DNA from: a virus
Taxonomy: Duplodnaviria > Heunggongvirae > Uroviricota > Caudoviricetes
Direction: 5' to 3' (one strand)
Length of the DNA stretch: 36,755 bases
Virus record (IMG/VR): IMGVR_UViG_2778261460_000001
Span: 1 to 36,755 of that record
The notes below the pieces were generated by a model. That model searched no databases and was not told where the DNA came from. It was given only the letters and a program-made list of their open reading frames with translations. Shown here in pieces: positions 21,339-29,095 of this stretch. Position numbers and translations under genes: made by a program. The number at the start of each line of letters is the position of its first letter. Position 1 is the stretch's first letter.

Positions 21339-21782
21339 TTACGCCAGTACGCCTATTGCCAGCGCACGATCGATAAAACGAAATATCAGCTCCAGCTGGG
21401 AACCATACTTCTCTTCAAATGCCACGGTATCCGCATGCAGCTCGTCGTGATGCTTTCTGCACAAAGGCAACACAAAGAGGTCATGCGCTTTTGTACCCAT
21501 TCCACCCTGACCGTGGCCTATCAGGTGGTGGGGATCATCAGCGGGCTTTCCACAACATGCACACGGCTGTGTCTTAACCCAGCGCGTGTACTTTTCATTA
21601 ACCCAGCGGCGACGTTTTGGGCGTAACATAAAAGACTCCGGCGACTCCGGATCCACTTTCAGCGCCAGCACCTTTTTCGCCTTATCCTGGATGATGCTGG
21701 TGGCAGGAACCGAAGGCACAAGGTCACTTTCCCGGGTATCCCAGCATGGTTGCCACCTCCTGATTGGTTGGCGGAAAGCCAC
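21339..21782 (-). CDS. DUF968-like Cys/His-rich protein (nin-region)
   Basis: 147-aa ORF with …CACCGKPADDPHHL…LPLCRKHHDELH…, immediately upstream of the Q-like gene. Confidence 0.45.
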   Translation of the reverse strand: MAFRQPIRRWQPCWDTRESDLVPSVPATSIIQDKAKKVLALKVDPESPESFMLRPKRRRWVNEKYTRWVKTQPCACCGKPADDPHHLIGHGQGGMGTKAHDLFVLPLCRKHHDELHADTVAFEEKYGSQLELIFRFIDRALAIGVLA

Positions 21783-21842
21783 GCTCTTTCTGGTAAGAAA
21801 TCAGCATATCCAGCACCTGCTGCTGGCATTGAGTTAACGTCG

Positions 21843-22496
21843 TCATGCCGCCATCTCCCTGACCAGTTTTTCCGCCTGCTGGCGAACCTGCACCAGAAAG
21901 GCTTCACCACATGCCTCAAGTTCATCGCGCCCGATGTAGCTGATTGCCGGTCCCTTCCAGGTCTTGTCGAAAACAGCAATAGCACCAGCGAAGAAAGCGC
22001 CTGTCGGCACCTGCTTCTCATCCTTCGGGATAAACCAGGCAGGCAGTTCAAAACCAATACGCCCGCGAATAAAAGCAATATGGTCCGCATCTTCCGGCCA
22101 CCACACTTCGCTGGTGGCAGCTTTGATCAGGAAAACATAGCGCCCGCCCTTATCACGCATGGCACTGGCATGTTTCATGATGTAACGCATGCCGGTGATG
22201 TATTGCCCCTCATGCTGACTGGCGCGGCTGTATGGGGGATTACCAAAGGCAGCACCTTTAAGCTCCGCAAGACGTTCTGACCAGTCATGCGCCAGCGCGT
22301 TATCTTCCGCCGTGTAATACGCGGCACATTTGGCGTTATCACCGTCAGTAAACAGATCCAGAACAAACGGGCCAAACAGGGTGTTAATTCCCCAGAAAAT
22401 GTTGTCCGGCGTGCGCCACTGATCGCCCACTTCCTTCAGTTCATGGGCTGGTTTGTTCCGCAGTTCTACCAGCGCCTGGCAATATTTATTACTCAT
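21843..22496 (-). CDS. Phage DNA N6-adenine methyltransferase (Dam family)
   Basis: 217-aa ORF with the motif IV signature FGNPPYSRA (NPPY) and an N-terminal SAM-binding-like region. Confidence 0.8.
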   Translation of the reverse strand: MSNKYCQALVELRNKPAHELKEVGDQWRTPDNIFWGINTLFGPFVLDLFTDGDNAKCAAYYTAEDNALAHDWSERLAELKGAAFGNPPYSRASQHEGQYITGMRYIMKHASAMRDKGGRYVFLIKAATSEVWWPEDADHIAFIRGRIGFELPAWFIPKDEKQVPTGAFFAGAIAVFDKTWKGPAISYIGRDELEACGEAFLVQVRQQAEKLVREMAA

Positions 22497-22590
22497 TAAG
22501 CCCCCACGTAAAAAGCATCCGCAATGTCTCCGGAAGTACAGCCCGGATGGGCTTCAATGAATTTCTGAACGTCATTTAACAGACTCATGA

Positions 22591-23583
22591 TCACCCCCTG
22601 AATCCTGCCGGGATCTGGCTGTAGTCCACGTTGTCGTAACTGGCTTTGAAGTACGGGTCTTCACGTTTTTCTGTGTGCGTGCTGACGGACGGCGATAAGC
22701 GCAGGGAAAGCTCATCCCATTTTTCCCGCAACTTCGACGGGCTGAGCACGTTACGGCACCAGAACGGATCGCGGCTGACGCGGCTGTACATCTCGCAGAT
22801 TTGTTTGTGAGTACGACCATCCTGCACACACATCAGGCGAATTTCGTTTGCCCATGCTGTCCAGTTCGGTTCTTTGGGACGAACCACCTCGCCGTCACAT
22901 TCGGCGGCCTGCTCGTACAGGGCGATGATTTTTTTCCAGAGCCACTGTGCGCAGGTCAAATCATCCTGCGTTCCCCACTGGCGCTTTTTAGGGCTGAATA
23001 CAACCGCATCAGGATGGCGAGTTAAAAACTCCTGTTCAGCCGTTTGCGTGTCCGGTTGCGAAGCGTCCGGACGAGAAGAGGTTTTATTCTCTGTAGTAAT
23101 CTCTGTTGTATTCTCTGTAAGATCATTGGGCCATTTTGACCCGATGACAGCGTGTCGTTTTGAACCAATGGATCGTGTCATTTTGCGCCCATCCATCAGG
23201 TCACTTTGACCCGATGGAGAAGTGCATTTTGACCTGATGGATTCGTTCACTTTGACCTCTTCTAAAAGCTCACTTTCATAGTTGATCGTGTAGAAGTTGG
23301 TCATGTCACGCTTCGATTTATTGAGTTGCTCGCGACGCAAAACCCCAAGTGATTTCAGGCTTGCAAATGTGCGTTTCAGAGTGGACTCTGACCAGAACGG
23401 AAACTGCTCCAGCCACTGTTCTGTCGTGTTATAAACCCAGCGAATTCCGCCATGCTCAGTGCCTGAATTCGTTTCATTCAGCCAGTAATGAAGCTGCTGC
23501 AACACAATTGCCTCATTCAGACCAATACGGCATGCAAGATCACGATTTATCACAATGGGCTGGGATGTCATTAACAGGCTCAT
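22591..23583 (-). CDS. Replication initiator protein (lambda O-like), containing the iteron origin
   Basis: 330-aa ORF downstream of the CII-like/Cro genes. It carries six about 23-bp-spaced iterons inside the coding region (23132-23261), as lambda ori does within O. Confidence 0.65.
   Translation of the reverse strand: MSLLMTSQPIVINRDLACRIGLNEAIVLQQLHYWLNETNSGTEHGGIRWVYNTTEQWLEQFPFWSESTLKRTFASLKSLGVLRREQLNKSKRDMTNFYTINYESELLEEVKVNESIRSKCTSPSGQSDLMDGRKMTRSIGSKRHAVIGSKWPNDLTENTTEITTENKTSSRPDASQPDTQTAEQEFLTRHPDAVVFSPKKRQWGTQDDLTCAQWLWKKIIALYEQAAECDGEVVRPKEPNWTAWANEIRLMCVQDGRTHKQICEMYSRVSRDPFWCRNVLSPSKLREKWDELSLRLSPSVSTHTEKREDPYFKASYDNVDYSQIPAGFRG
23132..23261. repeat. Iteron array (putative ori) inside the replication initiator gene
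   Basis: Six direct repeats of consensus YAYTTTGACCYGATG (starts 23132, 23156, 23179, 23201, 23224, 23247), followed by an AT-rich stretch (23257-23300). Confidence 0.6.
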
Positions 23584-23592
23584 GACCGACCT

Positions 23593-23931
23593 CTATTTCC
23601 CTGAATTTACGACGAAACTGTTCGAGCGGACTGAAGCATTCATGTTCATAGCCTTCACGGAGGTAGATAACCCGTTGTGTTTCCGGCTCCCAACGAATGA
23701 CTCTGACGGGCACTCCGTAGTGATCTTTGAACCAGCGGTTAACTTGTCGCAAAGGACTGTCTCCTTCTGCCGGTTGAAATCACCCACAGCCCACTCAGCA
23801 AAGCTGTGGGTTACAATTTCCCTGTCACCTGGTACATTAACTGCATAGCAATACTCCACCTTCGCTTTTCCACCCGGTACAGGAAGCGCAATCAGTTGCG
23901 AGCGACGGTAGTGTGTTGTTAAACTGTTCAT
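23593..23931 (-). CDS. Hypothetical protein (possibly disrupted)
   Basis: 112-aa ORF whose C-terminal third is low-complexity, while an overlapping frame (track ORF 23540..23752) reads protein-like; a 9-bp-stem hairpin lies at 23782-23811. Confidence 0.25.
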
Positions 23932-24524
23932 GCGTTAGTTTCTCCACAGTCACGACACGCCACGGCGCCCGGAGCTGCACACTCGCGGGCGTCATTACTT
24001 TCTGAAATGCAAAAGATTTTGTAGACCAGTGCTGCATGCTCCTGCAGCTTCGAAATTGAGAGATACAGCTCGTCGTTAATTGCTGTCTTCTCATGCGGTT
24101 CCACCACACCGTCTTCGATTGCCGAACGAATCTGTCTGGAATAACTGCCAATCTGTTCAATGACTTCCAGCAGGCGCTGGTTAATATCGGCGTTGTCCAC
24201 ATCCTCGACGTCAGGAAGAGACACAAAGACGCCATTTGCAGACTGCGCCACAGCGTCAGCAATGAAGTGAGTTCCACCAGCACGTTGCAAAATCATTGCC
24301 CATCCCAGCGGGAAAATCTGATCGCCATCGGCACGAAGGCGGTTAAATAATGCGTTTTCTGTTACATCCAGCCAGTCAGCTGCTTCAGCGTAACCACCCG
24401 GCAACGCTGCGATAGTTTTTCTGACAGCTTTCACGTACCACTCAGGCTGTTTTTCTACTTTCCAGTGATGCTTACCCACGGTTAGCCTCATCGTTCTGTG
24501 GTTTCTGTTAATCGATTTATCCAT
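23928..24524 (-). CDS. CII-like phage regulatory protein (CP76-like, about 198 aa)
   Basis: Start revised to ATG 24524 (or 24536), just after the cro stop at 24517; the track start at 24593 would overlap cro by 77 nt. Call is positional (immediately downstream of cro). Confidence 0.4.
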
Positions 24525-24717
24525 TAGATTTTTCATAAAGCTCAGGTTTAAATGGCAACCGTCCGCAAGTTCTATATGCAGCTTCTGCTGCACGTCCTTT
24601 TGGAATTAACTGGCCCGGACGGTTTCGCCACTGATAAACGGCTTCAGTTGTTATGCCGAAAAAAGCAGCAACTTTCTCAATACTGCCGAAGTAGCTTTCG
24701 ATATCGTCAGTTGTCAT
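24517..24717 (-). CDS. Cro-like repressor (HTH DNA-binding protein)
   Basis: 66-aa ORF divergent from the CI-like repressor, with a GGAGGG Shine-Dalgarno upstream and an HTH-like segment (…VAAFFGITTEAVYQWRN…). Confidence 0.65.
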   Translation of the reverse strand: MTTDDIESYFGSIEKVAAFFGITTEAVYQWRNRPGQLIPKGRAAEAAYRTCGRLPFKPELYEKSNG

Positions 24718-24814
24718 ACGCCCTCCAAACTAAGTTTTATTAGATGCTAATTACAAATCTATCTTTGGTCAATAAAAACTAAGATTACTTAGCAATTCAA
24801 GAAATGGTGCTCCT
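24718..24814. promoter_or_regulatory. Divergent immunity-region promoter/operator region (OR-like)
   Basis: 97-bp AT-rich spacer between divergent cro and cI. Contains a perfect palindrome CTAAGATTACTTAG (24779-24792), a related site ACTAAGTTTTATTAG (24729-24743), and a TTGACC -35-like hexamer on the cro strand. Confidence 0.5.
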
Positions 24815-25441
24815 ATGGAAACGGTTGGTCAGCGTATAAAAGCTCTGAGAAGAGTTACCGGAACGTCCCAGAAAGAATTGGGTAAATTTTGTGGAGTAAG
24901 CGACGTTGCTGTGGGGTACTGGGAGAAAGACATCAATACCCCTGGTGGGGAGGCACTTTCGAAATTAGCGAAGTTCTTCAATACGTCAATAGATTACATT
25001 CTTTATGGTGCTGAGTTTGAAGGCAAACTCGTCACAAACATGCGCAGAGTTCCTGTAATATCGTGGGTTCAGGCTGGGCAGTTTACTGAGTGCAGGGCAG
25101 CAGAAGTGTTTAGTGAAGTGGACAAGTGGGTAGATACATCATTAAAGATTGGTGATAACTCATTTGCATTAGAGGTTAAAGGTGACTCCATGACTAACCC
25201 TAATGGCCTCCCAACAATACCAGAAGGCGCAACAGTGATTGTAGATCCAGATGCAGAACCTCGTCATGGAAAAATAGTCATCGCTCGACTTGATGGAACA
25301 AACGAAGCTACAGTAAAAAAATTAGTCATCGATGGCCCTCAAAAGTTTTTAGTGCCATTAAATCCTCGGTATCCCAACATCCCTATCAATGGTAATTGCC
25401 TTATCATTGGTGTAGTCAAAGGAGTTCAATACGAACTCTAA
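24815..25441 (+). CDS. CI-like prophage repressor (HTH plus LexA/S24 peptidase domain)
   Basis: 208-aa ORF with an N-terminal HTH (…QKELGKFCGVSDVAVGYWEKD…) and a C-terminal S24 autocleavage domain with Ser-Lys dyad context (…EVKGDSMTNP…ATVKKLV…). Confidence 0.85.
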   Translation: METVGQRIKALRRVTGTSQKELGKFCGVSDVAVGYWEKDINTPGGEALSKLAKFFNTSIDYILYGAEFEGKLVTNMRRVPVISWVQAGQFTECRAAEVFSEVDKWVDTSLKIGDNSFALEVKGDSMTNPNGLPTIPEGATVIVDPDAEPRHGKIVIARLDGTNEATVKKLVIDGPQKFLVPLNPRYPNIPINGNCLIIGVVKGVQYEL

Positions 25442-27749: not shown

Positions 27750-27968
27750 GTGGAGAAACATATGCTGAACCTCGATTGTGTTCCTATCTCAACTTATTGC
27801 AAAGAAACTGGCGAAACTCCTGAAGCAATAAACAAACGTGTACAGCGCGGTGTTTGGCGTGAAGGTGTTCAGGTTTTAAAGGTTGAAGGCGTTAAGGAGA
27901 GGTGGATTGATCTTAGTGAGGTTGCAAAATGGGCCAGACAAAACTGCTCAAACTACCGCGCGGCGTAA
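27750..27968 (+). CDS. Excisionase-like protein (putative Xis)
   Basis: 72-aa ORF immediately upstream of and overlapping the integrase start. Confidence 0.45.
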   Translation: MEKHMLNLDCVPISTYCKETGETPEAINKRVQRGVWREGVQVLKVEGVKERWIDLSEVAKWARQNCSNYRAA

Positions 27969-29095
27969 CAATCAGGAAACACCGCCAGGGCGAAACGATC
28001 AATATAACTTTCACCTACAAAGGTGTTAAATGTCGTGAGCCTCTTTCCAATCTGGAAGTAACACCAAAGAACATTAAATACGCCGAGCGCACACTCGGCG
28101 AAATTCATAATAAGATCGAAAGGGGAACATTCATTTATGCGGAATATTTTCCCCGTTCTGCTCGTTTGAAAATTTTTGGTAATGCTGCTGCAGGCAAAAC
28201 GGTAAAAATGTACCTGGACGAATACCTTGAAATCTGCGAAACGAGAAAACTTTCACCCTCTACGATTGGTGGCTATAAAAAATGCCGTAGTGCGTTAGCC
28301 TCACTTCACATTTGCCCTGCAAGTGAATTAACACCAGCAACCCTGAAAGCGTGGATTCAAAATCAGAAAACGACCTTAAAAACAATTCGCAACCAGTTAT
28401 CTTTCCTGCGGTCAGCACTTGATGAAGCCGTGACCGATGGGGTACTTCAAATTAACCCCGTATCGTTAGTAACAGCTTCGCGCTACCAAAGTGATAAGTC
28501 AGAAGCAGAAAGCAGCTACGTAGTTGATCCGCTATCACCAGCAGAAGTTGATGCATTACTAGCAGCAGCCGGAAACAAACAATGGGAAAATCTGTTCCGG
28601 TTCGCTATACATACAGGCCTGCGTAGTTCTGAATTATGTGCCCTTCGATGGCGTGATATCGACTTTGTTGGAAAAACTGCCCATGTCCAGAGCGCAAGTG
28701 TTGTCGGTGTTATCAAAGGGACAAAGACAAAAGCAGGTACTCGGAAAGTTGAACTGACAGAAGAGGCAATGTTGGCGCTGATAAATCAGAAGCCATTTAC
28801 ATTCATGAAGGATACTACTGTCTTTGAAGATCCAAAGACCAATAAGCCTTGGGCAAGTGCTGATGCAATTAGGAAAAAAGCATGGGTGCCAACATTGCGA
28901 AAAGCAGGTATTCGTTACAGAAACCCATATCAAACCAGGCATACATTCGCCACCAGCCATATCAGCCGAGGAGCAAACCTGTTTTGGCTTGCAGCTCAAA
29001 TGGGGCATAAAGGGCCGGAGATGCTTTTCAGGCACTATGGTCGATATCTCAAAGAATACGACGGAAAAAGCTCCATCAAATACATTATACAATGA
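27929..29095 (+). CDS. Tyrosine integrase (lambda Int family)
   Basis: 388-aa ORF with the catalytic R…H-x-x-R…Y tetrad context (…HTGLRSSELCALRWRDID…, …RHTFATSHISRGANLFWLAAQMGHKGPEMLFRHYGRYL…). Confidence 0.85.
   Translation: MGQTKLLKLPRGVTIRKHRQGETINITFTYKGVKCREPLSNLEVTPKNIKYAERTLGEIHNKIERGTFIYAEYFPRSARLKIFGNAAAGKTVKMYLDEYLEICETRKLSPSTIGGYKKCRSALASLHICPASELTPATLKAWIQNQKTTLKTIRNQLSFLRSALDEAVTDGVLQINPVSLVTASRYQSDKSEAESSYVVDPLSPAEVDALLAAAGNKQWENLFRFAIHTGLRSSELCALRWRDIDFVGKTAHVQSASVVGVIKGTKTKAGTRKVELTEEAMLALINQKPFTFMKDTTVFEDPKTNKPWASADAIRKKAWVPTLRKAGIRYRNPYQTRHTFATSHISRGANLFWLAAQMGHKGPEMLFRHYGRYLKEYDGKSSIKYIIQ

Follow-up and report, generated by a model that had tools for sequence, protein, structure and literature searches.

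A candidate lambda-ori-like replication origin within the initiator gene of an Escherichia coli lambdoid prophage

The replication origins of phages lambda, SPP1, and 80alpha lie inside the initiator gene (PMC7466680, PMC5499656). In the Shiga toxin (Stx) phages 933W and P27, the O gene contains six iterons together with an AT-rich tract (PMC7466680), and for 80alpha it was reported that ORF20 (ORF, open reading frame) is not complementable in trans and that ORF20 and ORF21 together drive autonomous replication (PMC5499656). Here, we describe a related arrangement in a 36,755-nucleotide (nt) stretch of DNA (positions 1 to 36,755 of the IMG/VR record IMGVR_UViG_2778261460_000001; termed the window herein), which carries an E. 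coli lambdoid prophage with an early region like those of SfII, mEp460, and CPS-53. The ORF listing places a 330-amino-acid (aa) O-like initiator at 22591-23583 on the minus strand (phrog_391, "replication initiation O-like," E = 1e-101). The middle of this gene contains two adjoining sets of repeats, and the segment that they occupy (23084-23262) is, in our judgment, very likely the vegetative replication origin of the prophage, with a build like that of the lambda ori.

The larger set is an array of six abutting 23-bp imperfect palindromes at 23124-23262 (minus strand), which was recognized as direct repeats, by autocorrelation, and by self-complementarity. A preliminary description of this DNA, made from the sequence alone, had reported six direct repeats of about 23-bp periodicity in the middle of the initiator ORF, and both the unit positions and the autocorrelation bear this out. 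The units start at positions 23124, 23148, 23171, 23194, 23217, and 23240 (plus-strand numbering), with spacings of 24, 23, 23, 23, and 23 bp; in gene order they run 23240-23262, 23217-23239, 23194-23216, 23171-23193, 23148-23170, and 23124-23146. The gene-strand consensus of the full 23-bp unit is CATcGGGTCAAAATGACCcgATc. The 15-nt consensus proposed earlier, YAYTTTGACCYGATG, fits all six units but covers the centre and one arm alone. Each unit is self-complementary at 10 to 18 of its 23 positions, compared with 5.5 ± 2.9 for random 23-mers of the initiator gene; such palindromic units are as expected for sites bound by a dimer. The lag-23 autocorrelation reaches 0.63 at 23135 (140-nt span; z = 8.4), which is the top value over lags 8 to 40 across the whole 36.7-kb window (runner-up, 0.46). 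Upstream of the array in the gene direction, the composition shows an AT-richer stretch at 23263-23300 (37% GC, minus strand), and within it a possible degenerate seventh unit (23263-23285, minus strand) is weak and not conserved as a repeat.

The array spans codons 108 to 153 of the initiator ORF. Its units lie in codon phases 0, 2, 1, 0, 2, and 2, and the encoded peptides differ while the palindromes in the DNA are kept. Because the units occupy all three codon phases, the repeat is a property of the DNA and not of the peptide; 23 is not divisible by three, and a period of this length cannot keep a peptide repeat. A repeat conserved at the peptide level, which the preliminary description had raised as the counterexplanation, is thus not what we find.

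The second set follows the array after an intervening ATCT and consists of three 12-bp direct repeats, TACAGAGAaTAC, at 23084-23119 (minus strand), which are AT-rich and, on the gene strand, purine-rich. In gene order they read TACAGAGAATAC, AACAGAGATTAC, and TACAGAGAATAA (23119 down to 23084), and we propose them as a DNA-unwinding and helicase-entry element. The segment 23079-23123 has a GC content of 31%, and its gene strand is 49% A and 62% purine. The AT-rich segment that had been noted after the iterons is therefore present at these positions and is moreover structured as a 12-bp repeat. In the enterobacterial genes, the 12-mers are in frame and encode TENT/TEIT repeats, whereas the CAGAGA repeats of phages TP21-L (Bacillus) and mv4 (Lactobacillus) are 10 to 11 bp apart and stand in differing reading frames. 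Codon usage was compared between the 12-mer region, set by a codon-blind peptide anchor, and the rest of the same genes. Glutamate is encoded by GAG in 31 of 32 codons of the 12-mer region (104 of 221 elsewhere; P = 1e-8), and 61 of its 66 threonine codons have A or T as the third base (71 of 184 elsewhere; P = 4e-15); the genes are mutually related, so that these P values overstate independence, and their hosts span Pseudomonas to Staphylococcus. Since the frames change in TP21-L and mv4 and the synonymous sites are fixed, the 12-mers are under constraint at the level of the DNA. Natural variants differ by whole repeat units: among the relatives of the window protein, P0013 is without 31 aa (93 nt, or about four iterons), and P0118 has one extra TENT, that is, one extra 12-mer (12 nt).

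These data bear on the view that the repeats are kept solely for a flexible linker peptide, or that they are neutral products of slippage without a function as DNA. The linker encoded by this region is indeed of low complexity, with predicted disorder, and the in-frame TENT/TEIT repeats of the enterobacterial genes could be read in this way. However, a 23-bp period whose units pass through three codon phases, with differing peptides and preserved palindromes, 12-mers that shift frame in TP21-L and mv4 with fixed synonymous sites, and an architecture that is kept from phages of Bacteroidetes to those of Firmicutes already contradict this view, and we give it next to no credence.

Searches for relatives showed how widely the arrangement recurs. 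With the N-terminal 109 aa as the query, tblastn retrieved 123 phage records. The sequenced phage mEp460_4F5 is identical in the N-terminal 109 aa and in the origin region, with a protein about 98% identical overall. The identity of the N-domain is about 80% in Klebsiella and E. coli phages, about 60% in Pseudomonas, Erwinia, and Pantoea phages, about 50% in Staphylococcus, Bacillus, and Listeria phages, and about 30% in Burkholderia, Vibrio, Bacteroides, and Flavobacterium phages. Seventeen relatives, picked by protein similarity alone, were fetched; the 16 that are not identical come from phages of Escherichia, Klebsiella, Erwinia, Pantoea, Pseudomonas, Staphylococcus, Bacillus, Lactobacillus, Listeria, Burkholderia, Vibrio, Bacteroides, and Flavobacterium. 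Most of these 16 contain a 22- to 24-bp periodic array directly after the conserved end of the N-domain (..DRTNFYTI..), with match fractions of 0.48 to 0.66 at the best lag (22 to 23) in most of them. The periodicity is weak in Staphylococcus phage 96 and Burkholderia phage BcepMigl (0.43 to 0.44), and Pseudomonas phage AF has one or two units without clear periodicity (lag-23 match, 0.37). Most of the arrays are visibly palindromic, for example, GATGAGGGCAAATTGCCCTCATC in Pantoea phage AH07 and CATTCGCCGAATTCGGCGAATG in BcepMigl. All of them are followed by two to four copies of an approximately 12-bp repeat of the type (A/C)CAGA(G/T)Annn.

The iteron centre CAAA(a/t)TG is common to the relatives. 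The groups differ in the outer bases, which read GGTCA in the phages of E. coli and in Klebsiella Kp4882-3, GGGCA in those of Erwinia, Pantoea, and Pseudomonas and in Klebsiella SopranoGao, GGACA in those of Staphylococcus, and GTGTCA in those of Bacillus. The start of the presumed recognition helix varies in step (SESTLKR, SxDTxKR, SERTIKR, and SLSTMKR), a pattern that fits covariation of initiator and iteron in what is a small and phylogenetically structured sample. A scan of viral contigs for the DNA motif of a 12-mer doublet, ACAGAGANTACNACAGAGA, yielded at least 120 loci. Among the matches listed, the motif lies mostly at about aa 135 to 200 of an ORF of 250 to 400 aa, at least 91 loci have their strongest lag at 22 to 24 in the 170 nt upstream (match of ≥0.40), and at least 72 ORFs match the hidden Markov model (HMM) of the N-domain; the remaining ORFs form two further clusters, both with YW-rich N-domains. 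Phage 80alpha ORF20 was considered as an experimentally studied member of the N-domain family and was rejected, since it does not match the N-domain HMM.

The module of N-domain and origin is found in 1,840 of 5,426 complete E. coli genomes (about a third), of which about 220 match at ≥95% identity and about 1,600 at 80 to 90%, and it is also present in sequenced Escherichia and Klebsiella phages. In the records listed, the initiator gene is mostly annotated as "hypothetical protein." In the literature searched, with many subscription papers outside its scope, we found no description of this origin, the 12-mer element, or the tail discussed below. A full-text search for the 12-mer sequences gave unrelated primer matches only. 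The papers on the Eru classification of Stx phages describe neither iterons nor this module (PMC8044961, PMC8951638), and the genome paper of SfIV is silent on an origin.

The constant pairing of the two repeat sets also bears on what the iterons do. They might bind the initiator but serve mainly autoregulation, copy control, or the exclusion of related phages, with the true start of replication elsewhere. Plasmid iterons are known to mediate handcuffing and autorepression as well. Cloned lambda iterons are reported to inhibit lambda replication (PMC3349717). Yet the window contains no second repeat array or AT-rich candidate elsewhere, the array is always accompanied by the 12-mer AT-rich element, as in lambda, where the DNA unwinds beside the iterons, and the position within the initiator gene is that of the lambda, SPP1, and 80alpha origins. 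We therefore regard a mainly regulatory role as very unlikely and favor the reading of 23084-23262 as an origin.

The initiator itself is a composite protein. As a whole it had no match in Pfam, NCBIfam, or a PDB sequence search, and Pfam Phage_rep_org_N was not matched. The region for its N-terminal domain (aa 1 to 105; 23269-23583, minus strand) presumably encodes a winged-helix domain that binds the iterons, as judged from the topology of an AlphaFold2 (AF2) model and from weak profile matches. The AF2 model, which was built from a shallow alignment and served for the layout of domains and disorder only, shows an H-H-b-b-H-H-b-b topology for residues 14 to 101 at moderate or low confidence, disorder for residues 108 to 178, which are the part encoded by the origin, and a helical C-domain. 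A profile of proteins that share the C-domain gave weak matches in the PDB to MarR and DnaD-N winged helices in the N-terminal region. The N-domain has no match to PF04492 (Phage_rep_O) at E ≤ 0.01, whereas lambda O scores 5.7e-36 against the same library, and by BLASTP the N-terminal halves of the initiator and lambda O are without similarity. The C-terminal domain (aa 185 to 296; 22696-23031, minus strand) is of the lambda O type: in a BLASTP comparison, initiator residues 147 to 294 align with lambda O residues 135 to 270 (33% identity over 148 aa; E = 1e-26). The earlier designation of the locus as a lambda-type ori is thus supported by the DNA repeats, their position, the homology of the C-domain, and the recurrence in relatives and does not extend to the N-domain, which is not like that of lambda O.

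The two halves also occur with other partners. Relatives of the C-domain make up 2,660 representative clusters at E ≤ 0.001, and the N-domains joined to it include HTH_36, Phage_rep_O, DUF1376, DnaD_N, GntR, and MarR. Conversely, the window-type N-domain with its origin is also joined to Phg_2220_C C-domains (Kp4882-3, AH07, and mv4), to DnaD-like C-domains (phage 96), or to others. The O protein of SfII has an HTH_36 N-domain and iterons of 15-bp period and is nearly identical to the window protein from ..SRPDASQPD on, with the junction directly after the 12-mers. Relative to SfII-type O, the N-domain, iterons, and 12-mers have therefore been swapped jointly, as a single module. Since 15 is divisible by three, the iterons in the SfII O gene (L001, 7185-7307) can also be seen in the peptide, as a DPSKS/DASKS repeat.

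In the mechanism that we propose, transcription from an early rightward-type promoter (on the minus strand here) would yield the 330-aa initiator, dimers of its N-terminal winged-helix domain would bind the six 23-bp palindromic iterons in the DNA that encodes the initiator's own disordered linker, and the nucleoprotein complex would destabilize the adjacent AT-rich, purine-skewed array of three 12-mers, so that the origin could fire. Iteron binding, unwinding of the 12-mers, and transcription through the origin are modeled here on lambda (PMC7466680), SPP1, and 80alpha (PMC5499656). A candidate for the promoter is a pR-like sequence in the cI-cro intergenic region (TTGACC-17-TAGCAT; 24744-24772, minus strand), found by a consensus scan only; the number of consensus matches in that region is not above chance, and the position of the candidate fits the gene map. 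Transcription from it would cross cro, cII, and the origin.

As the next step, the lambda-O-type C-domain and a DnaT-like tail (..YSQIPAGFRG) might bring in the host helicase without a phage P protein, the likeliest route being the host DnaC-DnaB complex or the PriA/DnaT restart machinery. Recruitment by this route is suggested by the pattern of tails described below, and we consider it possible but somewhat less probable than not. A lambda P homologue was not detected by tblastn over the whole window (best E = 1.7), no DnaC or DnaB homologue was found in the window, and the Walker-A motif matches it at just two places, the integrase ORF and an ORF near 2769, both outside the early region. SfII, SfIV, mEp460, and HannyBb, sequenced phages that share this O type, likewise have no loader gene in the region examined. 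The next intact gene after the initiator encodes a Dam-family methyltransferase (21843-22496, minus strand; Pfam, E = 1e-45). Between the two is a yfdN/PerC-like remnant of 30 codons (93 nt; 22496-22588, minus strand), which in an alignment with mEp460_4F5 shows a clean 396-bp in-frame deletion; the intact yfdN/PerC-like gene is described in PHROG as a "transcriptional activator" and carries no loader annotation. The earlier statement that no P-like or DnaC-like loader follows the initiator is thus upheld by the tblastn and Walker-A searches, while its companion, that the methyltransferase is next, holds through a deletion only, because the intervening gene has lost 396 bp.

The tail YSQIPAGFRG (22594-22623, minus strand) was identified by pairwise comparison as a near copy of the C terminus of E. 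coli DnaT (SQIPPGFRG). The initiator ends in ..DYSQIPAGFRG and E. coli DnaT in ..SEPDSQIPPGFRG, with eight of the last nine residues identical. The HannyBb-type O protein ends in QRCVNHISEPDTEIPPGFRG, of which 14 of 20 positions are identical to DnaT (70%; pairwise E = 9e-8). Similar tails are found on Phg_2220_C-type C-domains (..VPAGFRS and ..VPHGFRG), and the DnaT C-terminal motif has been reported in DopC, a bacterial protein derived from O (PMC5509034). DnaT was not among the best 60 of 109 PDB matches of the profile of C-domain relatives, and these matches are all in the N-terminal winged-helix region. The suggestion in the preliminary description that helicase recruitment may differ from that of lambda gains a concrete lead in this DnaT-like tail, and the route is probably a different one.

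We surveyed the tails of 86 initiators with nonidentical C termini and searched for loaders within 1.5 kb downstream, including a phmmer search with DnaC. Thirty-four GFRG-tailed initiators are without a loader gene, and a DnaC/IstB-like gene (Pfam IstB_IS21, E = 3e-18) follows such an initiator as one complete and two partial ORFs; no lambda-P-like gene follows a GFRG-tailed initiator in this survey. Both lambda-P-like genes in the survey follow an O protein with a D-W tail (..NTDWIYGVDL in lambda and ..SKDWADHGLGM in L120), and ..NTDW..G(L/V) tails are present on many other lambda-O-type C-domains. This association of tail and loader is drawn mostly from enterobacterial phages; a search with the family alignment gave close relatives only and did not broaden the survey. 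The AAA+ gene of the DnaC/IstB type stands directly after the DnaT-tailed O gene (L124, 1292-2038; also L033 and L079), and this order of a DnaT-tailed O followed by DnaC is the gene order of the host dnaT-dnaC operon.

Taken together, these patterns allow a broader and still more tentative reading, which we hold to be less probable than the helicase route taken by itself. The IPxGFRG end would be a functional copy of the DnaT tail that docks the host DnaC-DnaB complex or PriA, so that no phage loader is needed, and the tail class on a lambda-O-type C-domain (DnaT-like or ..NTDW..) would set the loader; as a corollary, the host dnaT-dnaC pair would be a domesticated phage module of tailed O and DnaC. 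The (A/C)CAGAGAnTAC 12-mers would, in addition, be a sequence-specific unwinding or helicase-entry element common to phages of Gram-negative and Gram-positive hosts.

Other tails occur in the family. ORF292 of Lactobacillus phage mv4 ends in ..QNDDDLPF and gp32 of Bacillus phage TP21-L in ..EDIVLPF, like the acidic C-terminal tip of bacterial SSB (a protein that binds single-stranded DNA); because of this resemblance, short host-mimicking tails may be a general device of such initiators. In Erwinia phage PEp14, Pseudomonas phage 8P, and Klebsiella phage SopranoGao, the initiator has no DnaT-like tail and is followed by a conserved phrog_6028 protein of about 230 to 270 aa (L007, 3372-4187; L013, 3483-4274; and L009, 3505-4188, respectively), which could be an undescribed partner or loader.

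Several points weigh against the proposed origin and its mechanism. No binding, unwinding, or origin assay for this family was found in the literature searched. The AT-rich element is short (45 bp, 31% GC), four of the six iterons are self-complementary at just 10 to 12 of 23 positions, the mean predicted local distance difference test score (pLDDT) of the AF2 model is 54, and the comparative samples are not phylogenetically independent. With regard to the tail, hhalign assigned a probability of 4.3% to the match between the C-domain profile and DnaT outside the tail, and the binding partner of this tail has not been established even for DnaT itself (PMC13377028). Finally, neighboring genes of this prophage carry deletions, and this copy may be cryptic.

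The last point can be extended to the view that the origin of the family is real but that this copy is in a decaying, noninducible prophage and no longer fires. In addition to the 396-bp deletion in the downstream yfdN-like gene, the DUF968 ORF (21339-21843) is 147 aa here and 329 aa in SfII, and this prophage lacks the lexA-like, rusA, and kilA-N genes that SfII and E. coli strain E1 have between dam and Q, which suggests a second deletion, in the nin-like region. On the other hand, the initiator ORF, iterons, and 12-mers are intact, many other E. coli genomes contain the initiator gene at 100% sequence identity, and mEp460_4F5 is identical throughout the N-terminal 109 aa and the origin region, as described above. 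The lost genes are not known replication genes, and cI, cro, Q, the lysis genes, and int are present. We therefore consider it unlikely, although more probable than the other two alternatives, that this copy has ceased to function, and we retain the reading of 23084-23262 as the origin of the prophage.

The gene map surrounding the origin is that of a lambdoid prophage, with the integrase gene at 27929-29095 (plus strand), a LexA-like cI gene at 24815-25441 (plus strand), cro at 24517-24717 (minus strand), and a CP76-type cII gene at 23928-24593 (minus strand). The map also includes DUF968, the antiterminator Q, and the lysis genes, and the order after the initiator is yfdN remnant, dam, DUF968, and Q. 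Upstream of the initiator, a DUF4222 ORF (23540-23752, minus strand; Pfam, E = 1.5e-18) overlaps the initiator start by 44 nt, and a phrog_1170 ORF (23593-23931, minus strand; E = 1e-69) overlaps the DUF4222 ORF by 160 nt in another frame; annotators differ on which of the two is called. Three GATC sites (23121, 23171, and 23284) fall within the 240 bp of the origin region 23070-23310, a density of about 12.5 per kb compared with 3.6 per kb in the window, and the phage dam gene adjoins the origin; control of the origin by methylation or SeqA is possible. The DnaA box (TTWTNCACA) is not found in the whole 36.7-kb window, where about four occurrences are expected by chance.

A defined origin of iterons and 12-mers amounts to a testable minimal replicon. 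Because the layout is kept from Bacteroidetes to Firmicutes phages, the 12-mers may act generally as a signal for origin opening. The DnaT-like tail is a specific feature that can be mutated to learn how phages with O alone load DnaB without a P protein and, equally, what the C terminus of DnaT contacts.

Compared with described systems, the locus shares individual parts with several of them. With E. coli DnaT (primosomal protein I), which has a three-helix-bundle C-terminal domain and an N-terminal oligomerization domain, the clear similarity is in the terminal 9 to 20 residues: the last nine here (SQIPAGFRG, and SQIPPGFRG in DnaT) and the last 20 in the HannyBb-type O protein. DnaT has no domain for origin binding and works together with PriA and PriB at abandoned forks. 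With SPP1 G38P/oriL and 80alpha ORF20, it shares an origin embedded in the gene of a replisome organizer, and 80alpha ORF20 also has iterons followed by an AT-rich run within the gene. The 80alpha iterons, however, have a 15/30-bp period, a DnaC-like loader gene follows, and the C-domain is Phg_2220_C-like, as judged by sequence motifs and not by a Pfam scan.

Another comparison is with the SfII/SfIV/SfV-type O proteins of Shigella and E. coli prophages (relatives of CPS-53 yfdO). Over the C-terminal 160 aa, tail included, they are almost identical to the window protein, and the neighborhood is the same (cII-like gene, 112-aa ORF, O, yfdN-like gene, and dam), with no helicase loader in any of them. 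They differ in their HTH_36 N-domain and in iterons of 15-bp period (GATTTTGACGGGTCA), which are read in frame. The Stx phages 933W and P27 match the window in having six iterons and an AT-rich tract in the O gene but are close relatives of lambda, with lambda-type O N-domains and a P gene.

With lambda itself, the locus shares an origin in the middle of the initiator gene, between N-terminal DNA-binding and C-terminal domains, and tandem iterons of dyad symmetry with spacings of 20 to 24 bp, after which comes an AT-rich, purine-skewed tract. Their place within the gene matches as well, with the annotated lambda iterons at O codons 117 to 144 and those of the window at codons 108 to 153. The C-terminal domains are homologous, and in both cases the origin is part of the cro-cII operon, with a pR-like promoter (a candidate here) upstream of it. 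Lambda has four 18-bp units, whereas the window has six abutting 23-bp units; the AT-rich tract here is a defined 12-bp repeat; and the tail is ..NTDWIYGVDL in lambda O and DnaT-like in the window protein. Lambda also has a Phage_rep_O N-domain and a P gene, neither of which was found in the window. These are two defining features of the strict lambda O-P family, and we class the origin region described here as a variant within a known kind of architecture.

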